Shown one piece after another: positions 9,709-22,953 of a stretch of 32,000 nucleotides of DNA. The stretch comes from Candidatus Heimdallarchaeota archaeon (GTDB lineage: Archaea; Asgardarchaeota; Heimdallarchaeia; Heimdallarchaeales; Kariarchaeaceae): assembly GCA_030149205.1 (NCBI GenBank), contig JASBSB010000001.1, positions 120,001 through 152,000 on the forward strand. Direction: 5' to 3'. Positions within the stretch are counted from its first letter, which is position 1; each line of letters starts with the position of its first letter. The notes under the pieces were generated by a model that saw nothing but the letters and a program-made list of their open reading frames with translations, searched no databases and was not told the origin of the DNA. The position numbers were made by a program, and so were the translations under genes.

Positions 9709-11637
9709 GTGGAAAATTCTTATGACATTTTCATGCTGTTCAAAGAACTAAAATTAGATAAATTTAAAGCTGATGTGTTACAAGATGATCAAACTTTAAT
9801 TGAAGAGGGTTACTTAATCTCTGTCAACCTCTCAAATTACAGTATTAATGAAATCCCTAAAGCAGTTTTTACTTATTTCTATAGACTAGAGCGGCTTAAC
9901 CTCTCAGGAAACAAACTTAACACATTGCAAAAACATATTTTTGACCCTTTGGTAAACCTAAAAGAACTGAACCTTTCTGGAAACAAGTTACAATCACTTC
10001 CTTCAGACCTCATAAGAAATCTCAGGTTATTAGAGACATTAAATTTGGATGGAAACAAACTTCGAGAATTTGATAAGTTCTTTTTCGAAAAATCAACTGA
10101 GCTCAAACAACTTTCTGTTGCCTCAAACAAATTAAGACAAATCCCGAATTTAACAAGATGCAACAGATTGGTTACATTGGATTTCCACTCAAATAAAATT
10201 GAAGAAATTACAAAAGAAGGCCTTAAAGGGCTCCTTAACCTCAAAGAAATAAATTTGGGGTATAATAAGTTAACAAAACTTGATTTAGGTGATATCCCTG
10301 AATCTATCTTACAGCTTAATCTTGAAAGCAACCAGTTAGAGTCTATTATAAATGAACATGTTGAACTCCTCCCTCTTGAAACTTTGAACCTTCAATCAAA
10401 CCATCTTATTTCTTTTCCCAGGTTTCATCTCCCATCTCTAACAACCTTGTTTTTAGGTGAAAATTTTATAACAGAGATTTATGACAAGAGTTTCAAGGGC
10501 ATTCCTGAGCTTAAGATAGTTTTTCTGCAAAGAAACAAAATAAATTATATTGAGACAAATTTTATCTGTAATTCTAAATTAGAACTTCTATGGTTAGAAG
10601 GTAATGAACTATCAGAAGATCAAGATCGAAACCTAAATTCCTTTGAGATGATCAAGAATTGGTGTTCAAAAACTCAAAAACAGGAATTATCAAGAAAGTT
10701 AGTATTTGAACTATTGAAAATACTAAAGATAGAAAAAAAGTTCGCCCAGGTTTACTCAAGTGATAAAACAGTAATCCTGGGTGATAATATCATTTCTTTG
10801 GATTTATCTGGTCTTGGGCTCTCAGGAATATTAAATCTTAGTGATTCCAAATTTAACAGCATATCAAACCTATATGTCAATGACAACCATTTTGATAAAA
10901 TCTCAAAACTTCCTAATTCAATCGAGATATTAGATCTAAGAAATAATAGTTTTGTCGATTTACCCTTACTCACACATGAATTACCATTACTAAAACAATT
11001 GTTCTTAAAGGGAAATCCCCTCCCCTCGAATTGGGACAGGAATTTAACTGATGAATTTGATTTAGAAGAATTTACTCTATTTTTTGAACAAACTAGGCAA
11101 ACCAGAATGAGTATATTTCAGTTTTTAGCTATTATAAACTCACCAGAACAGTATTCAAGGATAATAACTTCACCTCAAACAAAAATAATACAAGGAAAAA
11201 TAAATTCAATAGACCTGTCAGGATTAAAACTAGATAAAATTCATGAGATTCCACTTGAAATTAGTAGAGATGCAAAATCTTTAGATTTATCAAATAATAG
11301 CTTATCAGAAGTCAATTTAATTCAATTCAATAGCCTAGAGGAGTTAAATTTGAGCAGAAACAACATTAAAAGCATTAACAGCATTTCAAGTTCTAAAAGT
11401 ATAAAGATATTAACACTCTCTGAAAACCTAATTACTGAAATTACAGCTCATGATATTAAAAATTTCCCAATGCTAGAGTCCTTAGATATAAGTGACAATG
11501 AGTTAAGAAGCATCGATATTGCAGAGCTTACAAATTCTAATCTTAAGGAATTAGCATTAAGTAAAAATCCTTCTCTTAAATTACAAAAGGAAGCTCTAAG
11601 GCAATTGAACATAAAAATTAAAGTTGAAATTGATTGA
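9709..11637 (+). CDS. Leucine-rich repeat protein (642 aa), three LRR blocks
   Basis: Many LxxLxLxxNxL repeats (LERLNLSGNKL, LKELNLSGNKL, LETLNLDGNKL, LEELNLSRNNI, LESLDISDNEL). Confidence 0.93.
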   Translation: MENSYDIFMLFKELKLDKFKADVLQDDQTLIEEGYLISVNLSNYSINEIPKAVFTYFYRLERLNLSGNKLNTLQKHIFDPLVNLKELNLSGNKLQSLPSDLIRNLRLLETLNLDGNKLREFDKFFFEKSTELKQLSVASNKLRQIPNLTRCNRLVTLDFHSNKIEEITKEGLKGLLNLKEINLGYNKLTKLDLGDIPESILQLNLESNQLESIINEHVELLPLETLNLQSNHLISFPRFHLPSLTTLFLGENFITEIYDKSFKGIPELKIVFLQRNKINYIETNFICNSKLELLWLEGNELSEDQDRNLNSFEMIKNWCSKTQKQELSRKLVFELLKILKIEKKFAQVYSSDKTVILGDNIISLDLSGLGLSGILNLSDSKFNSISNLYVNDNHFDKISKLPNSIEILDLRNNSFVDLPLLTHELPLLKQLFLKGNPLPSNWDRNLTDEFDLEEFTLFFEQTRQTRMSIFQFLAIINSPEQYSRIITSPQTKIIQGKINSIDLSGLKLDKIHEIPLEISRDAKSLDLSNNSLSEVNLIQFNSLEELNLSRNNIKSINSISSSKSIKILTLSENLITEITAHDIKNFPMLESLDISDNELRSIDIAELTNSNLKELALSKNPSLKLQKEALRQLNIKIKVEID

Positions 11638-11654
11638 TTTAAACTCAAAGATGT

Positions 11655-11948
11655 CTAATTCTCTTCTTCGGGTTTAAAGATTAAAAATAGGATGATGTCT
11701 TTTATAAAAATACTGACCTCGATAAAGAAATAACTTGCCACTGTGATTAACACACTTAATGGGATAAGTAGAAAATATAAAATATACCCAGATTCCCTGA
11801 TGTTCGAAACCAAACGGTTAGTAGGATCATTCCATAGACCGATAAAATAGCTGACAAACCAAAACAACAGTATACCCATAACGAGAAAAGCAATTAACCT
11901 GTAGATTTCATTCCTCGAATAGAACTGATTATTATCAACGGTACTCAT
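11655..11948 (-). CDS. Small two-TM membrane protein, unknown function
   Basis: 97 aa ORF with two hydrophobic helices; fills the gap between neighbouring genes. Confidence 0.65.
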   Translation of the reverse strand: MSTVDNNQFYSRNEIYRLIAFLVMGILLFWFVSYFIGLWNDPTNRLVSNIRESGYILYFLLIPLSVLITVASYFFIEVSIFIKDIILFLIFKPEEEN

Positions 11949-12010
11949 TCTATTCTTATGTAAAAATCAATTGTTCAAAAAAGTTGTCTAATTGTTCGAA
12001 AAATTTTATC

Positions 12011-12973
12011 TTATCTTTTTGAATTCTCAGATTTAACAAGCATTTTTGCATCAATTGCTGCTTGTTGGAACTTAAGAAGGGCCATTCTCTGAGAGAGAGG
12101 ATTAGTTGGTGGTTCTTCAGGTTCGTAAGAATCTAGAAGTTCTATCAATTCTTTGGTTTCTTTTTGAATCTCAAGTTCTTCAATTTGCGCTTTAATTTCA
12201 TCTCCGACCAAATAGAGTTCATCTTTAAAAATTTGAATCTCATGTTCATTATACGAACTCTGGTCATTTGCGTATGAGTTAAGTGCAAAAATTGTTTTCT
12301 GGACTATCGTCTCATGATTCAAGGTTTTAATGACCTTCCAAAGATCTGGAAGCACACCAAATCCGTATTTTGGTTTTAGGATTTCTTTGTACAATTTCTT
12401 TTGATTCTCATACATAAACAACACAAATTCCTCAGGTGTCATGTCTAACGCGTTTGCCCAATCATCAACCCAATTAAAGGGAGTGGGTTCATCATCCAAG
12501 ACGATATATGTAAGAAGGAACTCAATAATATTTTTCTTAAACCAGTCAGGTTTACTTTCTACCTTTTCAGTACTTAACAGGGATCTTTCATAATAATCTA
12601 CTGATGGAGTAATCTCGTATCCTCTTAAAAAAACAAAAGGTCTATAATTTGGTTCAATTTTATAAGTATGGATCCAACCTTGGTACAAAGATGCAACAAG
12701 ACCGGGAAGGATTGCGACACCAATAACAGGTATAGCCATCCAAGAATTCTTACTATCGAGAAGGTAGATTCCAAGAGAGAGAATAATTGAGAAATAAAGC
12801 ATTGGTCTGGTTGCCGCTCTTAATCTTGATGTAAACAAGAGGTTTGAACATCCTTTACAGAGTTTTATTGTATCATTATAGTACTCTTGAGGAACATATA
12901 TCTGACAATATCCACACTGGGTAGATGAAGGTTCATTGTTCCAAGGAGAGATTTGAGATTTACCAGGTGACAC
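12011..12973 (-). CDS. Hypothetical membrane protein with N-terminal Zn-ribbon (CGYC...CKGC)
   Basis: 320 aa; CxxC-x15-CxxC, two hydrophobic helices, acidic helical C-terminus; GTG start. Confidence 0.7.
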   Translation of the reverse strand: MSPGKSQISPWNNEPSSTQCGYCQIYVPQEYYNDTIKLCKGCSNLLFTSRLRAATRPMLYFSIILSLGIYLLDSKNSWMAIPVIGVAILPGLVASLYQGWIHTYKIEPNYRPFVFLRGYEITPSVDYYERSLLSTEKVESKPDWFKKNIIEFLLTYIVLDDEPTPFNWVDDWANALDMTPEEFVLFMYENQKKLYKEILKPKYGFGVLPDLWKVIKTLNHETIVQKTIFALNSYANDQSSYNEHEIQIFKDELYLVGDEIKAQIEELEIQKETKELIELLDSYEPEEPPTNPLSQRMALLKFQQAAIDAKMLVKSENSKR

Positions 12974-13043
12974 ATCTCAAGGATAAATCACTCTATTAAA
13001 TTCATTTTTATACATTAGATTTTTTTTAGCTCAGTTATGTGGA

Positions 13044-13967
13044 TTATTCTTCTAGTTCATACATCGATACAGCTAATCGTTTGTTACAGATAGGACAAAC
13101 TCCCCTAACTTTTACATACTCTAAAAGATGACGAGAGTGAGCGGGTGCCCTACAGTTGATGCAATACAAGAAGGTATCACCAGTTTCAATTGATTTTCTA
13201 CAAACACTACAATTATCATTTAATTTGGAAGAAGCAAGTAAGAGTGTGTTAGGGATCGACTCAGTTTGTAAGTTTGAAGCAGGTTGATTTTGGATGAGTT
13301 CAGTTGAATCCAAATCTGAACCCATTGCTTTAGAAGTAACTTGTGGAATAATTACTTCTTCCTTATCAATGGTTGATACTTCGACTGGAAGACCTGAGCC
13401 ATTGGTATTGTTGGATGTTGGTCTAATTGGATGATTTGAATCTGATGTTGATATTTTACCTTCGGTCACCACTTGTGAGGGAGGTAAGGCTTCAAATTCT
13501 ACTGGTTGAATATTTGATACAACTTCAATAGCTTCAGCAGCCTCAATCTGTCCATTGGCTCTGAGTAGAGCCGCTGCAAGGTCTGGTCTATTGTTCTTAT
13601 AATATAGCTCCTGAATTAGGTTGTCCACTGCTTTTGTTATGTTGCTCCCAAGTCTGTTTTGTAGGATCAACAGAGCTTGATTGGCATAAGTGGGACCCTT
13701 CAGCAATTTAGCCTTAGCAGCCAAGTAAGTTTGACCACTTTGAATGTAAAGTGTTGAAGCTTCATCAAATCTTCCTTCCCTCACTAGCTTTTCAGCAGTC
13801 TTGAAGTAATGGTTATTAGATTGTTGACGGTCACGAGGCCTCCTTCTCGTAGATCTTGTTCTTCTTGATTGATTCGAGCTATTTCTTGGTGATTTGGCAA
13901 CCTGTTTGGCTATCAAATACACTATCACAGCTAAAACTATTACTAAAATGAAGTCACTCGTTGCCAT
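13044..13967 (-). CDS. Membrane-anchored protein with short helical repeats and a C-terminal RING-like Zn finger
   Basis: N-terminal TM (FILVIVLAVIVYLIA), Arg-rich linker, clathrin/TPR-like helices (AEKLVREGRFDEASTLY), Ser/Pro/Thr linker, and terminal CSVC-x13-CINC-x4-HSRH-x10-CPIC. Confidence 0.75.
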   Translation of the reverse strand: MATSDFILVIVLAVIVYLIAKQVAKSPRNSSNQSRRTRSTRRRPRDRQQSNNHYFKTAEKLVREGRFDEASTLYIQSGQTYLAAKAKLLKGPTYANQALLILQNRLGSNITKAVDNLIQELYYKNNRPDLAAALLRANGQIEAAEAIEVVSNIQPVEFEALPPSQVVTEGKISTSDSNHPIRPTSNNTNGSGLPVEVSTIDKEEVIIPQVTSKAMGSDLDSTELIQNQPASNLQTESIPNTLLLASSKLNDNCSVCRKSIETGDTFLYCINCRAPAHSRHLLEYVKVRGVCPICNKRLAVSMYELEE

Positions 13968-14908
13968 ATCAGTTCCCTTTGGTTAAACACAAGATAGTAT
14001 TGTTTTACAGGTATTAAAAGTCTACTAATTACTAACATTAGTTGACATCCACTTTTTCAAAGTGGGTCTACAAAAGTCATCACAGATATTAGTCTCCCAA
14101 CTAATACCTTTTTAATTAAAGTAATGAAATCTATTTTCAATTTCAATACGAAACTGTATTTCGGAAAACATCACACTTTAACACAATTCAATAGAAATAG
14201 ACTATTCATTAAGAAAATAAAAATAAAGAAAGTCGCTTCCATATTTAACAAGAAAGAATTGAAACTACGATAACAGATAAACCTAAAAATTATTAAGATA
14301 AAATAAGAGCAAAACCTATCAAATGGTACAAGGTGAAAGCATAAGACCAAGTTAATTCAATAGTAGATTCTTATCAACAAAAAGCTGCGAAATTACCACT
14401 CCCTAAAATTCTGCTCAAGTTAATCAGTTTACTGATAGAGGGAGTACAAGCTAAGATAAAGATTCTATAAATTATAATTGTAAAATCATATTTGCTCTAA
14501 TGTCGATTTTTGATTTTAAATTTGTTCATGAAAGGTATTGTCCATTGTAACCAGAACATCCCAATGAATTTGGGATTAAAATGAAAGAAATAGTTATTGA
14601 TCGTAAAAAGAGAAGAGAAGAGTTGAAAACCAATATGGGTAGTTATCTAATTTAGTGGTTTAGGTAGTTTACTTTACTAAATTAATACAATATTACAGAA
14701 GATTACAAAGATTAGATGTTTTAATTGCAAATATCATAAAAAACATTTCATCTTAGTAAATTTTTTAGTTTGTACTAAAGCAGAGTATTATTTCACAAAA
14801 AACAATCTAAGTTTGTTAGAACAGAAGATAAACAACCATTTTAAGGAAAAATATATGCAAAAAGAAATTTAAGTTCGGGTTAATTCTTTTCAATGACCTA
14901 ATATAATT

Positions 14909-15742
14909 TCAAGTGTCAAACTCTAATAAATCTATAAAGTCACACAATTTACAAAATTGACATACCTTAGATGTGAAATCTTGTTCAGGTAACTTTTTTA
15001 TATTATTTAATTGTTGTGATTTTTCGTATAAATTAGAAATCTCTTGCAATAATCCCCCAATCGTTTTCTGGTCAATTTTTTGAATTTGATCAAATTTTGG
15101 TTTACTATACCAAAGTTCAAGATTTATTTGCTGGTCTGGAAAAGAACTGTATAATATTTCACCATAAATTTTTATTTGATTCTCATCTTCTAGTTTTGGA
15201 GTACCCGTTTTGTATTCAATTATTCGTAATCCACCTGTTTCAGAAAATGCTACCAAGTCAATCTTACCACGTATTTGAAAATTGTGGTTAATTCTATTGA
15301 TAACAGTAAATTCATCTTGAATTACAAGTGATGTTATCTCATTATTATTAATTGTAACCAAACTTTCTGCCATAAGAGCAAGATTATGAAGTTGACTTGT
15401 AATTATATCAAAACTATTTGAAAATTCTTGGCGATGGTATTTCCATGGACCTGTATTATTCATCCATATTTTTTTTATTGAATCTAATTCAATTTCCATT
15501 GATAATAATATTGCATCCTTTATATTCTTACTTTTACGGTGATAAAAAAATTCAACATTACTAAAATTTCTTAGGAATACTCTCTGTAAAATTAAATGTA
15601 AAAAATTTCCCGCGTATACAAATTTGTTAGGTGTAAATGGTATTTTTATCTCCTGTTGAGCATATAATACCTGTAACATTGTTCTTCTTTTACAATTAAA
15701 TTCATTTACACTTGTAACTCCTAATCTTATTGATTTATTCAT
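14909..15742 (-). CDS. PD-(D/E)XK nuclease, Cas4/AddB-like with putative Fe-S cysteines
   Basis: C17 (EFNCKRR), GNFLH, IRGKIDLV, IIEYKTG (D...ExK), QIKIY (RecB-type QxxxY) and C-terminal CQFCKLC. Confidence 0.85.
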   Translation of the reverse strand: MNKSIRLGVTSVNEFNCKRRTMLQVLYAQQEIKIPFTPNKFVYAGNFLHLILQRVFLRNFSNVEFFYHRKSKNIKDAILLSMEIELDSIKKIWMNNTGPWKYHRQEFSNSFDIITSQLHNLALMAESLVTINNNEITSLVIQDEFTVINRINHNFQIRGKIDLVAFSETGGLRIIEYKTGTPKLEDENQIKIYGEILYSSFPDQQINLELWYSKPKFDQIQKIDQKTIGGLLQEISNLYEKSQQLNNIKKLPEQDFTSKVCQFCKLCDFIDLLEFDT

Positions 15743-17513
15743 TTAATGTCCTCCTATTTTCCAATAAAAATTCTGAAGAATAGTGCATAGCTAATCCAAG
15801 GATAAATGGAAATTTCGGTTTTGATAAACTGTATGGGTTTATGAAGGTTTGATAAAATACATCTTGAAGTATTTCTTGGATATCATGCAATCCTTTGATT
15901 TTTTCAATAAATAATGGTTTGGGAATACCTTCAAATAAATCATTAGGATATCCATTTGTCATAATTAATGACTTGTTATCATTAATACTAACTGATAAGC
16001 CATCAATTGCTTTAGAAGTATTTTCGATCTGTCCATAAAGGATTGAGTGTGATGAATTAACTAAAACTAAACAAAAATTATAATGGGAAATTTTATCAAT
16101 TAAAGGTAATAACTGTCTGTCTGAAATTTGAATTAAGAAGTGGTCTGAATCACTAAAATTAATCAATTTTTGTAAGAAATCATTAATTTTAACTTTTTCA
16201 TCGATATTTTTGTCTCTATCATTATAAAAAATATCATGTGAAATGTTAATATTTCCCTTATTAGAACTAACACCTGATAATATCATCCATTCTCCTGCAT
16301 AATATGGTGTTATATGAAGAGCGATTATATTCTGATGATACTTCATTGATACATTTTGATATAATTTTCGAGTGTATCTAAATCTAATATTCAACCAAAT
16401 TAGTTTTACAATTTTTCCCCAATCATCTTCTAATATTGTTGAAAATTTAATGATTTTATTTGGAATTACAATTTTTTCTTTAGTTTTATTGTATACATAT
16501 CCTGAACCCTTTATTCTATCGTCGATACATATTATAGCTGCATCTGCCTCAAATTTATGAAGCTTGGAGACATAATAGCTTTGAATTGTAATATTTAATC
16601 CTGTAACTTCTGCAAAATATGAAATAAAATTCTGAATCTTAATGGGGGTATTATCTGTCACAGATTTATCAATTAAAAATAATATATTGCTAATAAATGG
16701 ATCAAATGAAATGTTATCCTCTAAAATATCTACTAATGGAGTAGTGTTTAAAGTTTCAATAGTGTTTGAATTGATTTTTATCGACGGACTATTTATTAAA
16801 TCCCCTTTCAGATTCTCAATAACAGATAATCTTACATTTCCGATTTGATTTGTATTTATTACTTTGATTATTTTAAGGAATCTTTGTTCCACTGATTCAA
16901 AATTTCGATGTAATTGTAATACTTCTTTTTCTATTACACCAGGTATTAATTTATTAGATGTTAAGTTAAATGAATTTTCAGATATTTCATGTCTGGGATC
17001 ATAAAAAACCATAACCTTATCATCTCGCATCTCATGGCATTCAAACCTTTCAGCTTGAAAAATCGAATACGTGAATGTTTCATTAAACTGTTCAACAGTT
17101 TTTTCTACGATAGGATTTATTCTTTGACTAGCTACTCCTTTAGATTTTCCAATAAATGACAGTACCTCACTGGGTCTATAATAACCTTTGTTTGAAAATG
17201 TAATATATAAGGCTGTCAATACGAATATGTCAAGATTTTGTATTTCTTTCTTTTCATTAATCTCTGTAGTACAGATTGAAACAGGGATTGTAGCAATCTC
17301 CAAATGTGAAGGTGGTTTTTGTGCGAAAAGGTAATATGAATCCTTTACATATATAATTGTAAATGGAACATCTGATAAAAAATCACCATTTTTTAATGCA
17401 AAGGTCAGAAAGCTAAATTCATAGTTGTACTGCATGGAAACTTTGTACATTTTTAATACAGCTGTATCAATTTGTGCTATCCAACCAAGTATTTTGCATA
17501 TCATATAAACCAC
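15735..17513 (-). CDS. Argonaute/PIWI-like protein 2 (PAZ-less, catalytically inactive); probable start ATG 17504
   Basis: PIWI C-terminus SLIMTNG...EGIPKPLFIEK...EILQDVFYQTFINPYSLSKPKFPFILGLA. MID-like YNKTKEKIVIPNKII...LIWLNIRFRY. L1-like VMVFYDPRHEI. First catalytic Asp position is His (IALH). ATG 17504 overlaps the upstream TGA (ATGA). Confidence 0.75.
   Translation of the reverse strand: MVYMICKILGWIAQIDTAVLKMYKVSMQYNYEFSFLTFALKNGDFLSDVPFTIIYVKDSYYLFAQKPPSHLEIATIPVSICTTEINEKKEIQNLDIFVLTALYITFSNKGYYRPSEVLSFIGKSKGVASQRINPIVEKTVEQFNETFTYSIFQAERFECHEMRDDKVMVFYDPRHEISENSFNLTSNKLIPGVIEKEVLQLHRNFESVEQRFLKIIKVINTNQIGNVRLSVIENLKGDLINSPSIKINSNTIETLNTTPLVDILEDNISFDPFISNILFLIDKSVTDNTPIKIQNFISYFAEVTGLNITIQSYYVSKLHKFEADAAIICIDDRIKGSGYVYNKTKEKIVIPNKIIKFSTILEDDWGKIVKLIWLNIRFRYTRKLYQNVSMKYHQNIIALHITPYYAGEWMILSGVSSNKGNINISHDIFYNDRDKNIDEKVKINDFLQKLINFSDSDHFLIQISDRQLLPLIDKISHYNFCLVLVNSSHSILYGQIENTSKAIDGLSVSINDNKSLIMTNGYPNDLFEGIPKPLFIEKIKGLHDIQEILQDVFYQTFINPYSLSKPKFPFILGLAMHYSSEFLLENRRTLNE
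15749..15755 (-). promoter_or_regulatory. Shine-Dalgarno site AGGAGGA for the Cas4-like nuclease, inside the 3' end of the upstream Argonaute-like gene
   Basis: Minus strand reads AGGAGGACATTAAATG, with the ATG at 15742. Confidence 0.7.
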
Positions 17514-19702
17514 GGCTTTTTAAAATGGAAATTCGCCATATCTTTAGGAATTTTGCCCATACCTCTACTTGATGAATGAATTGGAACTGGGAGCTTAGTT
17601 TCAATTCTATCCCATCCAGAATAACAATGGCATAAATCAAAAATCTCATAAAGAAGTTTTTCAAATCTCTCCTCATCACATTTAATATTTCTTAATACAA
17701 TTGGATTTTGAGTCCCAACATTTCCTTGTGTTGAAATTAAACCAACTTCAGTCTTAGATATCCAATAAAAAGTCCCAATATGTGGCCGAAATATTCTATT
17801 TTTTTCATTCTTTGAATAAATACGAAGTGGAGACGAAGAAATTACCTCAACAATTGAATGTTTTAAATTAAGAATATTAAGGCTATGTTCAATATCTTTT
17901 AATTCTCTATCATAAAATTTTCCATTCTTTATTAAAACTACTTCATCATTATTTTTAGTGAGTAACTTAAAAGCACTTTCAAAATTTTGTTGACGATTTT
18001 CGACGTTATCAGAAATGTAGTATCCTCCACTAAATCTACCCGAATTATAATATGAATTTAGTAACCCCCGATATTTAGTTGCATCTAGTGAGATGTTTTG
18101 AGATTGCAAACCAATATATTTTACAAAACCATTTTCATTAACATTCAGTAACCATGAATGTAGACCTAACTTTGCAATTATACCCAAAAATATATTCCGA
18201 AAATACCCATTTTGTCTTGATTCAATTTTATCCTTCAGAACATTAAAATTAATTCCCTGATGAGGATATTCATTTTTTATTAATTCACCAGATACTAATT
18301 CTTTGAATTCACTATCTACACTATCATTATCAGAATGAACCACTATGATACAATTGTTGTTATTTACAAATTTATCCATATATTCTGATAAGTCTCCCTT
18401 TTTTTCGAGAAGTTTTATTTCATCAAACTCAATTTCTGTACTAAGAAATTGTTGAAGAATGATTATTTCTTTTGTTTCTTTTAGAAATGGCTTTTTTATT
18501 AATCCTAATTGATATTCATTATACTCTCGATATAATAAAATCGATATTTTTAACTTTTCGGGACCCTTATCAAATATCCCATATTTTTGAATTTCTAATG
18601 CTGGGTAATCAGTCCTATGTGAATTACCAATAATGTAATTATTCAAATCTAATAGTCCAGAGTTACATGAGTTCCAAGATTGAAAGTTTCTAATTGGATT
18701 TAGAGTTATTGAACCCACGGTTAAATTACCTATAAAACGCATATAATTCTGTGATCGTTTAAATCTAATCGGAGGGTCAGGCCTAATTTGTTTCATCAGG
18801 GCACCTCTATCATGATAATCCAAATGTGAAAATGTTGGTAATTCTCGAATTCTTTCTAAAGGGTATGAATAATACTCATCATTATCATTTTTATAGAATG
18901 ATAACGCAATAGGTGGTTCATCTTGTATAAATTCACCAAGCACGGGTGCTCTAGGACAAATGAATTTTTGTTTGTGAAACTCAATTATATCTAAATTATC
19001 AATTATTACCTCTGAAGGTTTCTTATTTACAATTTTTTTCAATTTCACAGTCTTCCCAGTTCCAGCATATCTACAGTTTGAGAAAGGATCCTGTTTTTCT
19101 GGACATTGAATAATTGGACAAGTATCTACATAATAATTTTTCGGATTTATTTCTATACTAGAATATGAAAGTTTCTCTCTCAATGATACGGATGAATGAA
19201 ATTTATATTTGAGATCAACTATTACTCCAACTTCACCATTTTTAAGCAAAATTGGAGCATATTGAAATCCTGGGAAAACATCAATTTTTCCAAAACCCTC
19301 GATGGTCTCAGGGCTAGAAACCTCAAATATTGAATTGTAAGTTTCTTGTATCTTCCATAATTTATTACTATGTCGTAAATTGACAGCAATAGCATCTCCA
19401 ATAATTCTTTTCAATAGATCTAAATCATCATCATTTTGGGCTGAAACTAATCTACTAGTAGGAGGAAATAAATTTACTGCCAAATCTTTTTCGAAATCAT
19501 CTTCAAGTAATTCGGTTGAAATTATCTTATCTCCAAATTGAATTATAATTTTACGTCGATTATCTGGAACTTTCCTAAGATTAAGTAATACATCACCAAG
19601 TTTTCGAAAGTTTATTTCTTCTTTTTTCCTATATTCAAAGACTGTAACTTTATCTTTGAATGGTGTTTTTTCAAATTTTAAAATATTAGTTATTATTTCC
19701 AT
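17501..19702 (-). CDS. ago: Long prokaryotic Argonaute (N-L1-PAZ-L2-MID-PIWI), catalytically inactive
   Basis: L1 DVFPGFQY...VIVDLKYKF; PAZ end YSYPLE; L2 IRPDPPIRF; MID YPHQGI...NIFLGIIAKLGLHSW; PIWI YIGLQ, VVLIKNG, GTQNPIVL, KLPVPIHSSS; terminal PWFI. Tetrad Asp positions read Q533, N593 and S712. Confidence 0.9.
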   Translation of the reverse strand: MEIITNILKFEKTPFKDKVTVFEYRKKEEINFRKLGDVLLNLRKVPDNRRKIIIQFGDKIISTELLEDDFEKDLAVNLFPPTSRLVSAQNDDDLDLLKRIIGDAIAVNLRHSNKLWKIQETYNSIFEVSSPETIEGFGKIDVFPGFQYAPILLKNGEVGVIVDLKYKFHSSVSLREKLSYSSIEINPKNYYVDTCPIIQCPEKQDPFSNCRYAGTGKTVKLKKIVNKKPSEVIIDNLDIIEFHKQKFICPRAPVLGEFIQDEPPIALSFYKNDNDEYYSYPLERIRELPTFSHLDYHDRGALMKQIRPDPPIRFKRSQNYMRFIGNLTVGSITLNPIRNFQSWNSCNSGLLDLNNYIIGNSHRTDYPALEIQKYGIFDKGPEKLKISILLYREYNEYQLGLIKKPFLKETKEIIILQQFLSTEIEFDEIKLLEKKGDLSEYMDKFVNNNNCIIVVHSDNDSVDSEFKELVSGELIKNEYPHQGINFNVLKDKIESRQNGYFRNIFLGIIAKLGLHSWLLNVNENGFVKYIGLQSQNISLDATKYRGLLNSYYNSGRFSGGYYISDNVENRQQNFESAFKLLTKNNDEVVLIKNGKFYDRELKDIEHSLNILNLKHSIVEVISSSPLRIYSKNEKNRIFRPHIGTFYWISKTEVGLISTQGNVGTQNPIVLRNIKCDEERFEKLLYEIFDLCHCYSGWDRIETKLPVPIHSSSRGMGKIPKDMANFHFKKPWFI

Positions 19703-19704
19703 AT

Positions 19705-20391
19705 TTATCTCTCTTTGTTTTTAAGTAACTCAAATGAACTTATCACCGCAAGGTCTGTGTTAACCGTTTTTGTTAGTATTTTCTTACAAGCTGAATGCAT
19801 TATGAAAAATCCTGTACCTAACGCAGTTTTCATTAACTCGTTTTTTGCGGATTGCAATAAAATATCATTAACTATTATTTCAGGATGAACTGATGTTGAA
19901 AAATATACTTGGATTGTAAATGAACTCGTATCATCCAAAAACAAAAAAGAATTTATTCCATCTTTTTTCCAATTACACTTCAGTGAAAAAAGATCTTCAA
20001 TTCTTGAATTAAACCCGTCTAATCTATTAAATTCTTCGCTAATTTCTTTGATAGGTAGTATAATTGAAGATTTTAACAAATAATTCCCCATAACTCTCAG
20101 GTGCCAATTAGAATTAAATTTATCTACGTCTAATACTTGTATAGTTTGATTGGATTGATACAATCCTGTATCTTCTTCATAAGAAAGCAGATTATCTTTA
20201 GTTAATTGGCTAAGTATCATTTCAACTTCTACATTTGGTATATGATCAAAATATAGATTACTTCTCCCAGAACTCATCCAAATATGTTTCACTATATTTG
20301 ATTTTTTTGCACTACCATAATCTCGCAGGAAATCAAGAATTAATTTTTTAATTGCTTTCTCCATTGAATCTTTAGGTTTCATATCAATCAC
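19705..20391 (-). CDS. Winged-helix protein with a possible degenerate restriction-endonuclease (Mrr-like) C-terminal region
   Basis: N-terminal wHTH pattern (LILDFLRDYGSAKKSNIV...VEMILSQLTKDNLLSYEEDTGLY). C-terminal beta/alpha region with FTIQVY where Mrr has xQxK. GTG 20391 overlaps the upstream TGA; alternative ATG at 20382. Confidence 0.5.
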   Translation of the reverse strand: MIDMKPKDSMEKAIKKLILDFLRDYGSAKKSNIVKHIWMSSGRSNLYFDHIPNVEVEMILSQLTKDNLLSYEEDTGLYQSNQTIQVLDVDKFNSNWHLRVMGNYLLKSSIILPIKEISEEFNRLDGFNSRIEDLFSLKCNWKKDGINSFLFLDDTSSFTIQVYFSTSVHPEIIVNDILLQSAKNELMKTALGTGFFIMHSACKKILTKTVNTDLAVISSFELLKNKER

Positions 20392-21428
20392 CTGACTATC
20401 TCCTTAATCTTTGACTTTAGTTCTTCAGAATTATCTACAATTACAACATTCTTAAAATTGTAGCGTATTTCATCATAATATTGATTAGAATTGTTTAAAA
20501 TAATAAAATGGGTAATATCAATAAACGAAGTAAAAGCAAAATTAATTTCATCTACCTCTTCAGAAGGTAAATGCATATCTACAATCCATAATCCAATTTT
20601 TAGGTTATTCAATTCAATGTAAATGGGAATTGTTATACTCTCATTCTGACTATTTGTAATCTTTATTTCCTTACGGATAAAAATTGGATTGAATTCTTGA
20701 ATTACATTGAGGAAGCTTTGACCAATTTTCTCCTGTAAATACTTGAAATCATCACTGAAAGCCGGAATTCCAGATATTTCCTCAAAATCTTTTGCTGTGT
20801 ATTTTGTTCTCATTTGAGAGCTTGATTTTGTAATTATTTGTTCTATTATATCTTGAAATATTTGTTTAGGATTACGAATTAGAATATTATATTTTGATAG
20901 CTCTTCAAGACATTTACTCTTAATATTATCGAATGGACTTGATGGATGATTGGGGGCAAAATAATTCCAAACAAATTCTATTTTTTTGAATACTTCAATT
21001 TTTTTCTGATCTGTGAATTTTCCTTTGAAAAGAGAATTTATTCTACCTTTATCAGCATTTGAAATTTCTAAATTGTTCTGAAGGTTTTGTTGAATTTGCA
21101 GTAGTTCAGTAATTTCTGCATTCCAACCCGATTGAGTTGTAAATCGAAATTTAATTTCTTTTCCAGATAAATTTTTTTCATCTTCCTGTATGAACTTTGT
21201 TAAAATTGGTATCAAACTTGATTTATTCCAGACACTATGTTCTTTTTTCTTTACCTGTTCAAATATAAAGTACCCAGTATATTCTATGTTAATATCTTCT
21301 AATTCATCATCCTTTGATTCAAATTCAATTGATAAAATCTGATCTCCTTTAATGAATTCAATGACTCTTAGTACTCCAACCATATTTTGGTAATTAATAC
21401 CATAGTTTGTATCAATTCCACTTGGCAA
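20388..21428 (-). CDS. Cap4/DUF4297-like dsDNA PD-(D/E)XK nuclease-domain protein
   Basis: N-terminal GINYQ...IEFE...LEDINI...FEQVK...W pattern (D45, Q58-x-K60) as in Cap4/LmuA-type nuclease effectors. TTG start. Confidence 0.72.
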   Translation of the reverse strand: MPSGIDTNYGINYQNMVGVLRVIEFIKGDQILSIEFESKDDELEDINIEYTGYFIFEQVKKKEHSVWNKSSLIPILTKFIQEDEKNLSGKEIKFRFTTQSGWNAEITELLQIQQNLQNNLEISNADKGRINSLFKGKFTDQKKIEVFKKIEFVWNYFAPNHPSSPFDNIKSKCLEELSKYNILIRNPKQIFQDIIEQIITKSSSQMRTKYTAKDFEEISGIPAFSDDFKYLQEKIGQSFLNVIQEFNPIFIRKEIKITNSQNESITIPIYIELNNLKIGLWIVDMHLPSEEVDEINFAFTSFIDITHFIILNNSNQYYDEIRYNFKNVVIVDNSEELKSKIKEIVR

Positions 21429-21810
21429 TATTTTAAATCTAGTTTTCTTTATAATAATTCAGAGATATTGTAATAATCAAAATGAAAGTTTTAAAAATTT
21501 AAATATACAATATGTGATATCAAAAAAATTTTATTGCAAAGACTTAAAATAAATGAGAACTCGAAGCTGGATAAAGACCTATAACCGTGATTTCCTTGAA
21601 ATATCTCGGATATAATCAAGAAAATAAATTAGTAAATCTAAATCTTGATTGAAATATTCTTCGTCTACTAATTATTCTTATTATATTGTTATCTTATAAG
21701 AGTTGGAAGTACACAGATATTCGACTTGCTAAGTCAGTATACAATATATATTCAACCAGTATCTTTCAACTATGACTACCAATTCCAAAAAAAAAATGAA
21801 ATTGAATGAA

Positions 21811-22953
21811 TTAATCCAGGTGTTTATTGTTTTTCTTAATATGCTGCAATGTATCTTCATTGTGAGCTGCCAAATACTCAAAAGAATTGTCATACATAGT
21901 TTGATTTAATCTATGAATAATGTCACTTTTTACGAAAATACTATATTCAACAGGAGTTTTGTTATCAATTGTAGATAAATTATTTGTTATGTATTTCATA
22001 AAATTTTCCAGATTTAACAATCCTATCGCAATTGTGGGATTAATTGGTATGTAATATTCTAACATAACTGATACTCCATTTACTATTAACTCTGCTATAA
22101 TCAATGGATTGTCTGAAGTAATTAATTCTACAGGGTGGTCTTGAGGATTTAGTCCAGATAGATTAATTATGATGATCGGCCTGAGTTCAGTATGTTTTAG
22201 TGGTTTATCAACTGTTTCATCAGGCAATTTTTGTAAAACTTCTCTGATTTTATTTTCAATTTCGATTTGACTATCTTTATGATCTAAAGATTTCTTTATT
22301 CCGATACTAATATTTTTACTTATTAAGGATATCATACCTTGTAAGTCGTTTTTTAAAAAATACCCCTGTGCTTTTTGTAAAAACACCTCGTCATATTTAA
22401 TATTACTTTGATATAGAATCTCCTGTGTTTCAGTGCTAATAAAACTAAAATCCAATATCTTACTAAATTTCATGTAATTTCTAAATGAAGGTGTTCTAAA
22501 CGTTAGATGATTAATAAAATCACATAAAATTTCGAAATTTGATTGCAAATGCATAGCATCTATGAAAGTCTCCGCAAATTTTTTTATATCTAATGATTTT
22601 TTGAATATGTTATCTCTATTACTAGGGTTGTAAATTTTTATTTTCTCAGTTTGAAAATTTAATTTTTCTAATCCAGTAAAGAACTTAGCGACTTTATCCT
22701 CAGCTTCACTCATCAAATCGTCAATCAGTTCCTCTAAAAACCTTGGAGAATAAAAACTTTGATTAATCTTTTTTTTGTCAATATCCCCAGTCTTTTTGTT
22801 CAACCTAAATACTCTTTTCTTTTTGTTATCTTTTTCAAAATCCTCCTCAATAACAAAATTTCGTAGAAACCACTGAGGAATATAATGTTGTTTTCTGCCT
22901 GACATGAACATAACTGTGGAATAATTGTATATTATAGTATTTGAACGAGACAT
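21811..22953 (-). CDS. DUF4238 domain protein
   Basis: QHYIPQWFLRNF near the N-terminus, LTFRTPSFR, LITSDNPL and YIPINPTIAI. Confidence 0.85.
   Translation of the reverse strand: MSRSNTIIYNYSTVMFMSGRKQHYIPQWFLRNFVIEEDFEKDNKKKRVFRLNKKTGDIDKKKINQSFYSPRFLEELIDDLMSEAEDKVAKFFTGLEKLNFQTEKIKIYNPSNRDNIFKKSLDIKKFAETFIDAMHLQSNFEILCDFINHLTFRTPSFRNYMKFSKILDFSFISTETQEILYQSNIKYDEVFLQKAQGYFLKNDLQGMISLISKNISIGIKKSLDHKDSQIEIENKIREVLQKLPDETVDKPLKHTELRPIIIINLSGLNPQDHPVELITSDNPLIIAELIVNGVSVMLEYYIPINPTIAIGLLNLENFMKYITNNLSTIDNKTPVEYSIFVKSDIIHRLNQTMYDNSFEYLAAHNEDTLQHIKKNNKHLD

Follow-up and report, generated by a model that had tools for sequence, protein, structure and literature searches.

Why would an archaeon encode two consecutive Argonautes, both apparently unable to slice, in one operon with two nucleases? 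This question is raised by positions 14909-21428 of a stretch of DNA from Candidatus Heimdallarchaeota archaeon (assembly GCA_030149205.1, contig JASBSB010000001.1). The whole stretch comprises 32,000 nt, equivalent to positions 120,001-152,000 of the forward strand, and is called the window below, while coordinates follow window numbering unless another locus is named. To our knowledge, all characterised prokaryotic Argonaute systems rely on a single Argonaute, which is at most completed by an N-lobe fragment. An earlier reading of this DNA from its letters alone is referred to as the sequence-only reading. On balance, we lean towards the explanation that the five genes form a composite operon for Argonaute immunity, which would depend on guides, combine two modules and act by abortive infection.

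Layout of the operon

Five co-directional open reading frames (ORFs) on the minus strand fill the interval 14909-21428 in the ORF reading of the window:

20388-21428, minus strand: gene 1, predicted Cap4/HamA/LmuA-type PD-(D/E)xK nuclease in the effector slot, 346 aa
19705-20391, minus strand: gene 2, small protein with a putative N-terminal winged helix (winged helix-turn-helix, wHTH), 228 aa
17501-19702, minus strand: gene 3, Ago1, a full-length long prokaryotic Argonaute (pAgo), 733 aa
15735-17513, minus strand: gene 4, Ago2, a sequence-divergent Argonaute by its predicted fold, 592 aa from GTG or 589 aa from the ATG at 17504
14909-15742, minus strand: gene 5, predicted Cas4-family Fe-S PD-(D/E)xK nuclease, ACE-like, 277 aa

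Read on the coding strand, genes 1 and 2 are joined by a GTGA stop/start overlap, genes 2 and 3 are separated by a 2-nt gap (TAA-AT-ATG), genes 3 and 4 share an ATGA overlap, and genes 4 and 5 overlap by 8 nt with AGGAGGA ahead. The sequence-only reading had given the same interval and the same four junctions, all of which read as claimed. The five genes are translationally coupled. On record and in all relatives, Ago2 starts at the ATG of the ATGA overlap, giving 589 aa; the longest ORF opens at the GTG and gives 592 aa. The GC content of the operon is 28.1%. Judged by comparison with related loci, the gene order is no chance run of ORFs, because many independent contigs and genomes show it again, with protein identities of 22-64%. 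A neighbourhood search for this order in other genomes had been suggested by the sequence-only reading, and the core of the operon was indeed found there.

Two Argonautes predicted to be slicer-dead

Ago1 is readily recognized by sequence. It matched the pAgo models of PADLOC down to E 1e-39, and its top match, a model named PprPIWI, covers the N-to-MID part only. If its family profile is compared with solved sequences, CpAgo (6e-20) and CbAgo (1.7e-17) are nearest, both of them active long-A pAgos. Together with CtAgo, the nearest solved sequences are all long-A, a clade assignment made by best matches and without a reference tree. In the family alignment to active CpAgo, the D1 column, which holds the aspartate of GLDVG in CpAgo, is occupied by Q/S/H in all family members, and the D3 column, which holds the aspartate of RDG, by N/G/R. 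Since the D1 and D3 aspartates are replaced, Ago1 is predicted to be unable to slice and is, by its sequence, slicer-dead. Between L1 and PAZ the protein carries an insert with four cysteines (C195, C200, C210, C249) that are invariant in 10 Ago1 family sequences and probably form a zinc site.

Ago2 is far more elusive. It has no match in Pfam, and within PADLOC-DB v2 it gave weak C-terminal matches to two pAgo models only (E 1.2e-5 and 0.004). A word-index protein search returned one relative each for Ago1 and Ago2, and the Ago2 family was built instead from an exhaustive HMMER search of 1.84 billion representatives, which delivered 28 clusters, most of about 600 aa. Based on a 20-sequence alignment, AlphaFold2 (AF2) modelled Ago2 with a predicted local distance difference test (pLDDT) score of 88.7 and a predicted template modelling (pTM) score of 0.89. 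Foldseek comparison of this model gave 275 matches in the PDB at E<=0.001, with a best E of 5e-24; all 50 matches listed are Argonautes, Mili, MIWI, hAgo2 and CbAgo among them. With VIA, 517 residues were aligned to PliAgo over model residues 4-580 (Z 23.7, root-mean-square deviation 4.1). At the sequence level, the family profile found CtAgo (9iad) as its best solved match (E 4.5e-7), and hhalign related the Ago2 and Ago1 families to each other over MID-PIWI (96.5%, E 7e-10). The entries concerned here and below are 9IAD for CtAgo, 9IAB for CtACE1 and 9IAC for MaACE1 (PMC12094033). Thus the model assigns to Ago2, with high confidence, a full N-L1-L2-MID-PIWI Argonaute fold.

What Ago2 seems to have lost is the PAZ domain and catalysis. 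In the model, about 95 residues (181-275) lie between L1 and MID, and in the alignment Ago2 is gapped opposite Ago1 residues 190-255, the PAZ region. Model and alignment point to a PAZ that is absent or vestigial, most or all of it having been lost. Among 20 sequences, neither the D1 column (H/D/S/N/A/V/M/Y) nor the D3 column (D/E/N/Q/K/S) is conserved, and Ago2 is accordingly predicted to be slicer-dead as well. The sequence-only reading had described a protein of about 590 aa as Ago2-like, with a MID-PIWI fold to be checked, and both Argonautes as lacking the DEDX tetrad. The structural matches bear out the former, and the replaced D1 and D3 positions in both families agree with the latter.

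In contrast to the variable catalytic columns, the MID pocket of Ago2 (Y/H341, K345, K353, R379) is kept in 20/20 sequences at 19-50% identity, and its residues sit on the MID helices and strand of the model. The invariance of this pocket argues for genuine nucleic-acid end-binding over mere scaffolding. We also considered complementary halves of one MID motif split over the two Argonautes and rejected this idea; the Ago2 pocket is complete alone, and only that of Ago1 is degenerate. In language-model features, Ago2 lies nearest to the pPIWI_RE clusters.

The Cas4-family nuclease

The Cas4-like gene is found directly downstream of Ago2 at every locus. Gene 5 matched PDDEXK_1 with 43.4 bits and gave Cas4, Cas4c and Aga_Cas4-like matches too. 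It contains a D...E176-x-K178 triad, a Q189-xxx-Y193 motif and one N-terminal plus three C-terminal cysteines; C17, D162, E176, K178, Q189, Y193, C261, C264 and C267 are invariant in 11/11 family sequences. Among solved proteins, MaACE1 (9iac, E 1.8e-5) is matched best, with Dna2, Cas4 and CtACE1 coming next.

The exchangeable first gene

Gene 1 matched Cap4_nuclease (PF14130), a dsDNA endonuclease domain, over residues 3-202 with 39.4 bits, above the gathering cut-off of 26.2, and gave weak matches to the PADLOC models of LmuA (Lamassu) and HamA (Hachiman). Its motifs E-D-I and Q-x-K-K-K are invariant in 4 orthologues. In addition, it carries an extra C-terminal domain of about 140 aa, for which a language-model feature atlas gave weak leads only (0.82; Mrr_cat and CTD domains of ABC-three-component systems).

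If the related loci are compared, the first gene varies while the other four genes stay constant. Three types occur:

Cap4-type nuclease: the window, L002, L007, the locus of P0013, and G160
Calcineurin-like metallophosphoesterase, all metal motifs kept: L011, G238, G249
Peptidase_C14 caspase-like protease, GHG histidine and DAC cysteine kept: L009

The catalytic motifs are intact in all three types, and by sequence comparison the first-gene slot appears to be occupied by an exchangeable toxic effector. A fixed sensor core combined with a swapped toxic enzyme is a pattern typical of abortive-infection systems. The sequence-only reading had named a Cap4-like and a Cas4/AddB-like nuclease, both with kept catalytic motifs, and had regarded them as two nuclease effectors. 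The families and motifs were recovered by the searches described above, and gene 1 does sit in an effector slot. Gene 5, in contrast, is an invariant core partner of Ago2, and only this part of the earlier proposal has to be given up.

The winged-helix protein

A protein of 215-266 aa lies directly upstream of Ago1 at all related loci. In the window this is gene 2, which matched no family in Pfam and no model in PADLOC-DB v2. An AF2 model from a five-sequence alignment reached a pLDDT of 62 overall. Residues 10-80 show a helix-strand-helix-helix-hairpin (H-b-H-H-b-b) topology at pLDDT 75-90, and the C-terminal domain was modelled at pLDDT <60. Foldseek matched the model to the winged helices of cullin WHB, IclR, CapW and LmrR. 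Language-model features were uninformative (best 0.85), and the counterpart at locus L035 gave weak HTH_45 and Csa3 matches. With modest confidence, we therefore describe gene 2 as a protein with an N-terminal winged helix, consistent with the wHTH protein of the sequence-only reading.

Conservation and separability of the modules

Wherever the contig suffices, a protein of about 230 aa, an Ago1 of about 740 aa, Ago2 and the Cas4-like gene follow each other in that order. This four-gene core was found at the following places:

L002 (from an archaeal metagenome-assembled genome), L007, L008, L009, L011, L012, the loci of P0013 and P0015, L014 and L015
Four further genomes from a different family within the phylum

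When 400 genomes of the phylum were scanned, the genomes with a strong Ago1 match and those with a strong Ago2 match proved to be one set of 7, in which the two genes are adjacent. No Ago2 match was obtained in three other searched genomes of the host genus (82-89% complete). The GC content of related loci ranges from 24 to 47%. Such a patchy distribution suits a mobile defence trait.

Two more distant loci are informative, since they show the parts of the operon in separate arrangements. At L034 (G157:C168, 7886-11835), a metallophosphoesterase, a 215-aa protein and an Ago1-like protein (688 aa, cysteine insert kept) occur without Ago2 or a Cas4-like gene. At L035 (G056:C28, 6241-13951), a two-Argonaute locus of another kind from the same class, a wHTH protein and an inactive Ago1-like protein (748 aa) are divergent from a 709-aa pAgo, which is followed by a Cas4-like nuclease (316 aa) and then by an RmuC-family protein. 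This 709-aa pAgo keeps GIDV and RDG and thus looks catalytically active. The comparison suggests that the operon consists of two modules, one formed by effector, wHTH protein and Ago1, the other by Ago2 and the Cas4-like nuclease. It further suggests that the latter is a decayed APACE-type module that became fixed behind the former, because the modules are split in G157 and G056 and because both Ago2 and the nuclease have an APACE1 partner as their best solved match.

Several loci show peculiarities of their own. At L014 (150-2402), Ago1 is present as ORFs of 191 aa and 512 aa with the cysteine-rich motif readable in the third frame between them, which points to a frameshift inside the cysteine-rich insert, either a sequencing error or a pseudogene. 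The L007 cassette (11006-17815) is flanked by a methyltransferase and by MmeI/Eco57I-like restriction-modification genes on a contig of 47% GC; it looks like a defence island and like a transfer into a very different genome. At the P0015 locus (JGI 3300042731), a NurA-HerA(DUF87)-Mre11-Rad50 set lies directly downstream of the five-gene cassette. A 1769-aa ORF adjoins the three-gene variant of L034 on the other strand. Finally, L036 (G060:C103, 4148-9072) offers a further gene context for the Ago1-type clade: an Ago1-like pAgo of 730 aa with cysteine insert, located between a 312-aa protein and a 578-aa DNA methyltransferase-like protein.

Comparison with known systems

The closest likeness of the Ago2 module is to APACE, which pairs a long-A pAgo with ACE. 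In APACE1, ACE1 is bound to the MID-PIWI lobe of the pAgo; this ssDNA (single-stranded DNA) endonuclease produces small interfering DNA (siDNA) guides and trims them (PMC12094033). As in APACE, a Cas4-family Fe-S nuclease (about 277 aa, PD-(D/E)xK triad, 1+3 cysteines) is encoded directly behind the pAgo, and among solved proteins CtAgo and MaACE1 best match the Ago2 and Cas4-like profiles. However, APACE systems are bacterial two-gene systems with catalytically active pAgos, whereas both Argonautes of the present operon are predicted to be dead. The present operon also has five genes, adding to the pair another Argonaute, a wHTH protein and a swappable effector of its own, and its Ago2 seems to lack a full PAZ. 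Furthermore, the triad of gene 5 is D-ExK in contrast to the D-DxK reported for ACE, and gene 5 is likened to ACE1 by best match.

The Ago1 module resembles the long-B systems BPAN, BPAS and BPAM, in which a full-length inactive pAgo acts as sensor for a co-encoded toxic effector that varies between systems. For BPAN, target recognition directed by a guide leads to collateral degradation of DNA and to abortive infection (Song et al. 2023, PMC10620215; EcBPAN, PMC13535254). These systems differ in that they comprise one Argonaute and one effector, without a Cas4-family partner. Their effectors are bAgaN (RecB-like), bAgaS (Sir2) and bAgaM (membrane), whereas Cap4, metallophosphoesterase and Peptidase_C14 proteins are found here. 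In addition, Ago1 is by best matches closer to long-A than to long-B pAgos.

In SPARTA, SPARSA, SPARDA, SiAgo-Aga1-Aga2 and AfAgo-N, too, a dead Argonaute is coupled to an effector, and another Argonaute-derived polypeptide contributes the domains that it lacks (PMC11788926, PMC10954474). In those cases the partner (APAZ, Aga1 or AfAgo-N) corresponds to the N-L1-L2 lobe only, while both Argonautes of the present operon have N, L1, L2, MID and PIWI. None of the five proteins matched the APAZ, TIR or SIR2 models of Pfam and PADLOC.

Tight coupling of an Argonaute-like protein with a PD-(D/E)xK-fold nuclease is shared with the three-gene pPIWI-RE system (Burroughs et al. 2013, PMC3702460). However, that family has been described from bacteria, and the operon contains neither a DinG helicase nor a PprRE-type gene. 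We rejected membership in pPIWI-RE, as PF13032, PF13111 and PF18157 gave no match at E<=1 in either Argonaute and the operon has no helicase gene. The nuclease domain of gene 1 is shared with CBASS Cap4, Lamassu LmuA and Hachiman HamA, and other toxic enzymes are swapped in at its place, as in Lamassu and CBASS. The SAVED, CD-NTase, SMC (LmuB) or helicase (HamB) partners of those systems are lacking here, and the sensor would be Argonaute-based. No SAVED or cyclase match was found in the five proteins or their neighbours.

At the level of whole systems, PADLOC-DB v2 gave no match. Likewise, no operon with two complete Argonautes was found in the searched literature, which took in few subscription-journal papers. 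The sequence-only reading knew of no described system with two Argonautes and two nucleases, and these searches are in line with it. Ryazansky et al. reported genomes with two pAgo genes, yet no such cassette. A structural survey of 2026 grouped eight Asgard proteins, divergent in sequence and related to Argonautes, into a single structural cluster and gave no gene context; some of them may be of the Ago2 type. Taken together, the operon seems to be a variant, so far undescribed, of the Argonaute immunity that uses accessory effectors, and not a new category.

Proposed mechanism and alternative explanations

How could two dead Argonautes and their partners interfere with an invader? In the composite immune operon that we favour, the Ago2 module would descend from an APACE-type pair of long-A pAgo and ACE. 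Its Cas4-family Fe-S nuclease would cut or trim invader-derived ssDNA into short 5'-phosphorylated guides, which the non-slicing Ago2 would hold in its invariant MID pocket. The other module, composed of the swappable effector, the wHTH protein and Ago1 with its putative zinc insert, would represent a dead-Argonaute sensor-effector unit of the BPAN/SPARDA type. The loaded complex, including Ago1 and perhaps the wHTH protein, would sense pairing with complementary nucleic acid of the invader. Target pairing would then switch on the product of the first gene, here the Cap4-type DNase, which would degrade DNA without discrimination and so abort the infection. In its place, sister operons would use a metallophosphoesterase or a caspase-like protease.

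Several points weigh against this explanation. First, the 5'-end pocket of Ago1 is degenerate, which leaves the nucleic-acid role of this protein in some doubt: Q482, N485 and K511 are invariant in 10 sequences, but the tyrosine-lysine half is not conserved. Second, contact between Ago1 and Ago2 is something we infer. A complex prediction with residues 340-733 of Ago1 and full Ago2, both with alignments, scored 0.11 against a mark of 0.32 and counts neither way. Third, the descent of Ago2 from an APACE-type pAgo is suggested by best matches, without a rooted tree. Fourth, the wHTH protein may be a transcriptional regulator alone. Fifth, a C-terminal 'docking' domain common to the effectors is weakly supported. 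Cap4-type and caspase-type effectors may share a region after the catalytic domain (HMM 16.8 bits versus 11.0 for the best of 2000 shuffles). For the same region, hhalign gave P 1.3e-4 and a probability of 54%, and the C-terminal region of the Cap4-type effector had no match in the metallophosphoesterases. With this negative result and the modest match between the Cap4 and caspase types, we rejected a universal effector docking domain.

A more specific version of the composite immune operon assumes a division of labour between the two Argonautes in Asgard archaea. The apparently PAZ-less Ago2, loaded by the Cas4-family nuclease, would carry the guide in its intact 5'-end pocket, and the zinc-insert Ago1 with its degenerate pocket would read target binding or relay it to the exchangeable death effector (DNase, phosphoesterase or caspase-like protease). 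We put this forward tentatively, as a possibility that is rather doubtful at present. If true, prokaryotes would for the first time offer an example of two full Argonaute paralogues acting as obligate partners. It would come from the lineage nearest to eukaryotes, in which such paralogues went on to specialise.

Among the alternatives, the one that survives best is that two independent Argonaute systems merely share one transcript, namely a BPAN-like unit and a decayed APACE-like unit that form no joint complex. Defence genes commonly cluster, and the modules are indeed separate or divergent in the relatives G157 and G056. However, an Ago2 that is slicer-dead would leave the Ago2 and Cas4 pair without an evident way to interfere alone, and Ago1 and Ago2 are linked by the ATGA overlap. 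Moreover, the two Argonautes co-occur in 7/7 genomes and on every sufficiently long contig, across 22-64% identity, and are thus more constant than usual neighbours in defence islands. We consider this alternative improbable.

Still less probable is a purely regulatory role of Ago2 as a pseudo-Argonaute. In this case it might act as an inhibitor or decoy and silence Ago1 and the effector, until nucleic acid of an invader or a viral anti-Argonaute protein titrates it away. A toxic effector has to be restrained, and the apparent loss of PAZ, the loss of catalysis, the fast divergence and the lack of a Pfam match would all fit such a role. Yet a protein of this kind would hardly be expected to keep its 5'-end pocket invariant in 20/20 sequences or to remain in the constant company of a guide-processing-type nuclease. 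A housekeeping or mobile-element function, such as DNA repair, replication termination or element competition, is the least likely of all: although some pAgos aid chromosome decatenation or repair (noted in PMC12094033), Cas4-family nucleases act in repair too and the NurA-HerA-Mre11-Rad50 genes lie just downstream at the P0015 locus, the operon is patchy (7/400 genomes, not found in the three other genomes searched in the host genus), resides in a low-GC island in which no integrase or transposase was found, and swaps toxic enzymes including a caspase-like protease in its effector slot.

If the composite immune operon is borne out, it would represent a new architecture for Argonaute immunity, in which two complete dead Argonautes are combined with a guide-processing-type nuclease and a plug-in effector slot. 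It would provide an evolutionary link between APACE-type and BPAN-type systems as well as a natural experiment in which guide loading and target signalling are split between paralogues, and in relatives it would place a caspase-like protease under the control of Argonautes. Because the second Argonaute has no Pfam match, similar hidden Argonautes may have escaped surveys that look for Asgard defence systems by sequence. A two-Argonaute system that is conserved, compact and testable would be available in the prokaryotes most closely related to eukaryotes.

Genomic setting

In the host genome (3.3 Mb, 93.5% complete), genes are present for an actin of eukaryote type (445 bits to PF00022) and for an EAP30 protein of ESCRT-II (99.8 bits). 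Together with the TBP and TFE genes near the operon, this fits the probable Asgard archaeon that the sequence-only reading had assumed. A search for profilin gave no match anywhere and counts neither way. Besides the operon itself, two features of its surroundings were delimited:

13968-22953: low-GC island of about 9 kb (GC 27.7% versus 34.7% in the rest of the window), comprising the operon, a DUF4238 gene and a 940-bp ORF-free spacer
21429-21810, minus strand: AT-rich intergenic region upstream of the operon, read directly, with an oligo-T run just after the DUF4238 gene

The region 21429-21810 is the probable promoter region of the operon. Archaeal housekeeping genes flank the island and encode TBP, TFE-alpha and a RadA-like protein; no integrase or transposase was found within it. 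Rfam gave no match at the gathering threshold anywhere in the window. A repeat search of 13900-22000 returned short AT-rich chance matches only, with no array and no guide-like repeats.

Just upstream of the operon, beyond the oligo-T run and within the same island, lies the DUF4238 gene (21811-22953, minus strand, 380 aa, PF14022 with E 6e-15). We ruled it out as a member of the system, since none of the related loci contains it; the same insertion may have brought it along as cargo of its own. The 940-bp AT-rich stretch at 13968-14908, downstream of the Cas4-like gene, has no ORF >=60 aa, Rfam match or repeats and may be the decayed end of the inserted island. Near the island, two eukaryote-like proteins of signalling type are encoded: a 307-aa protein with a C-terminal prokaryotic RING-like zinc finger (13044-13967, minus strand, weak PF14446 match) and a 642-aa protein made of leucine-rich repeats (9709-11637, plus strand).

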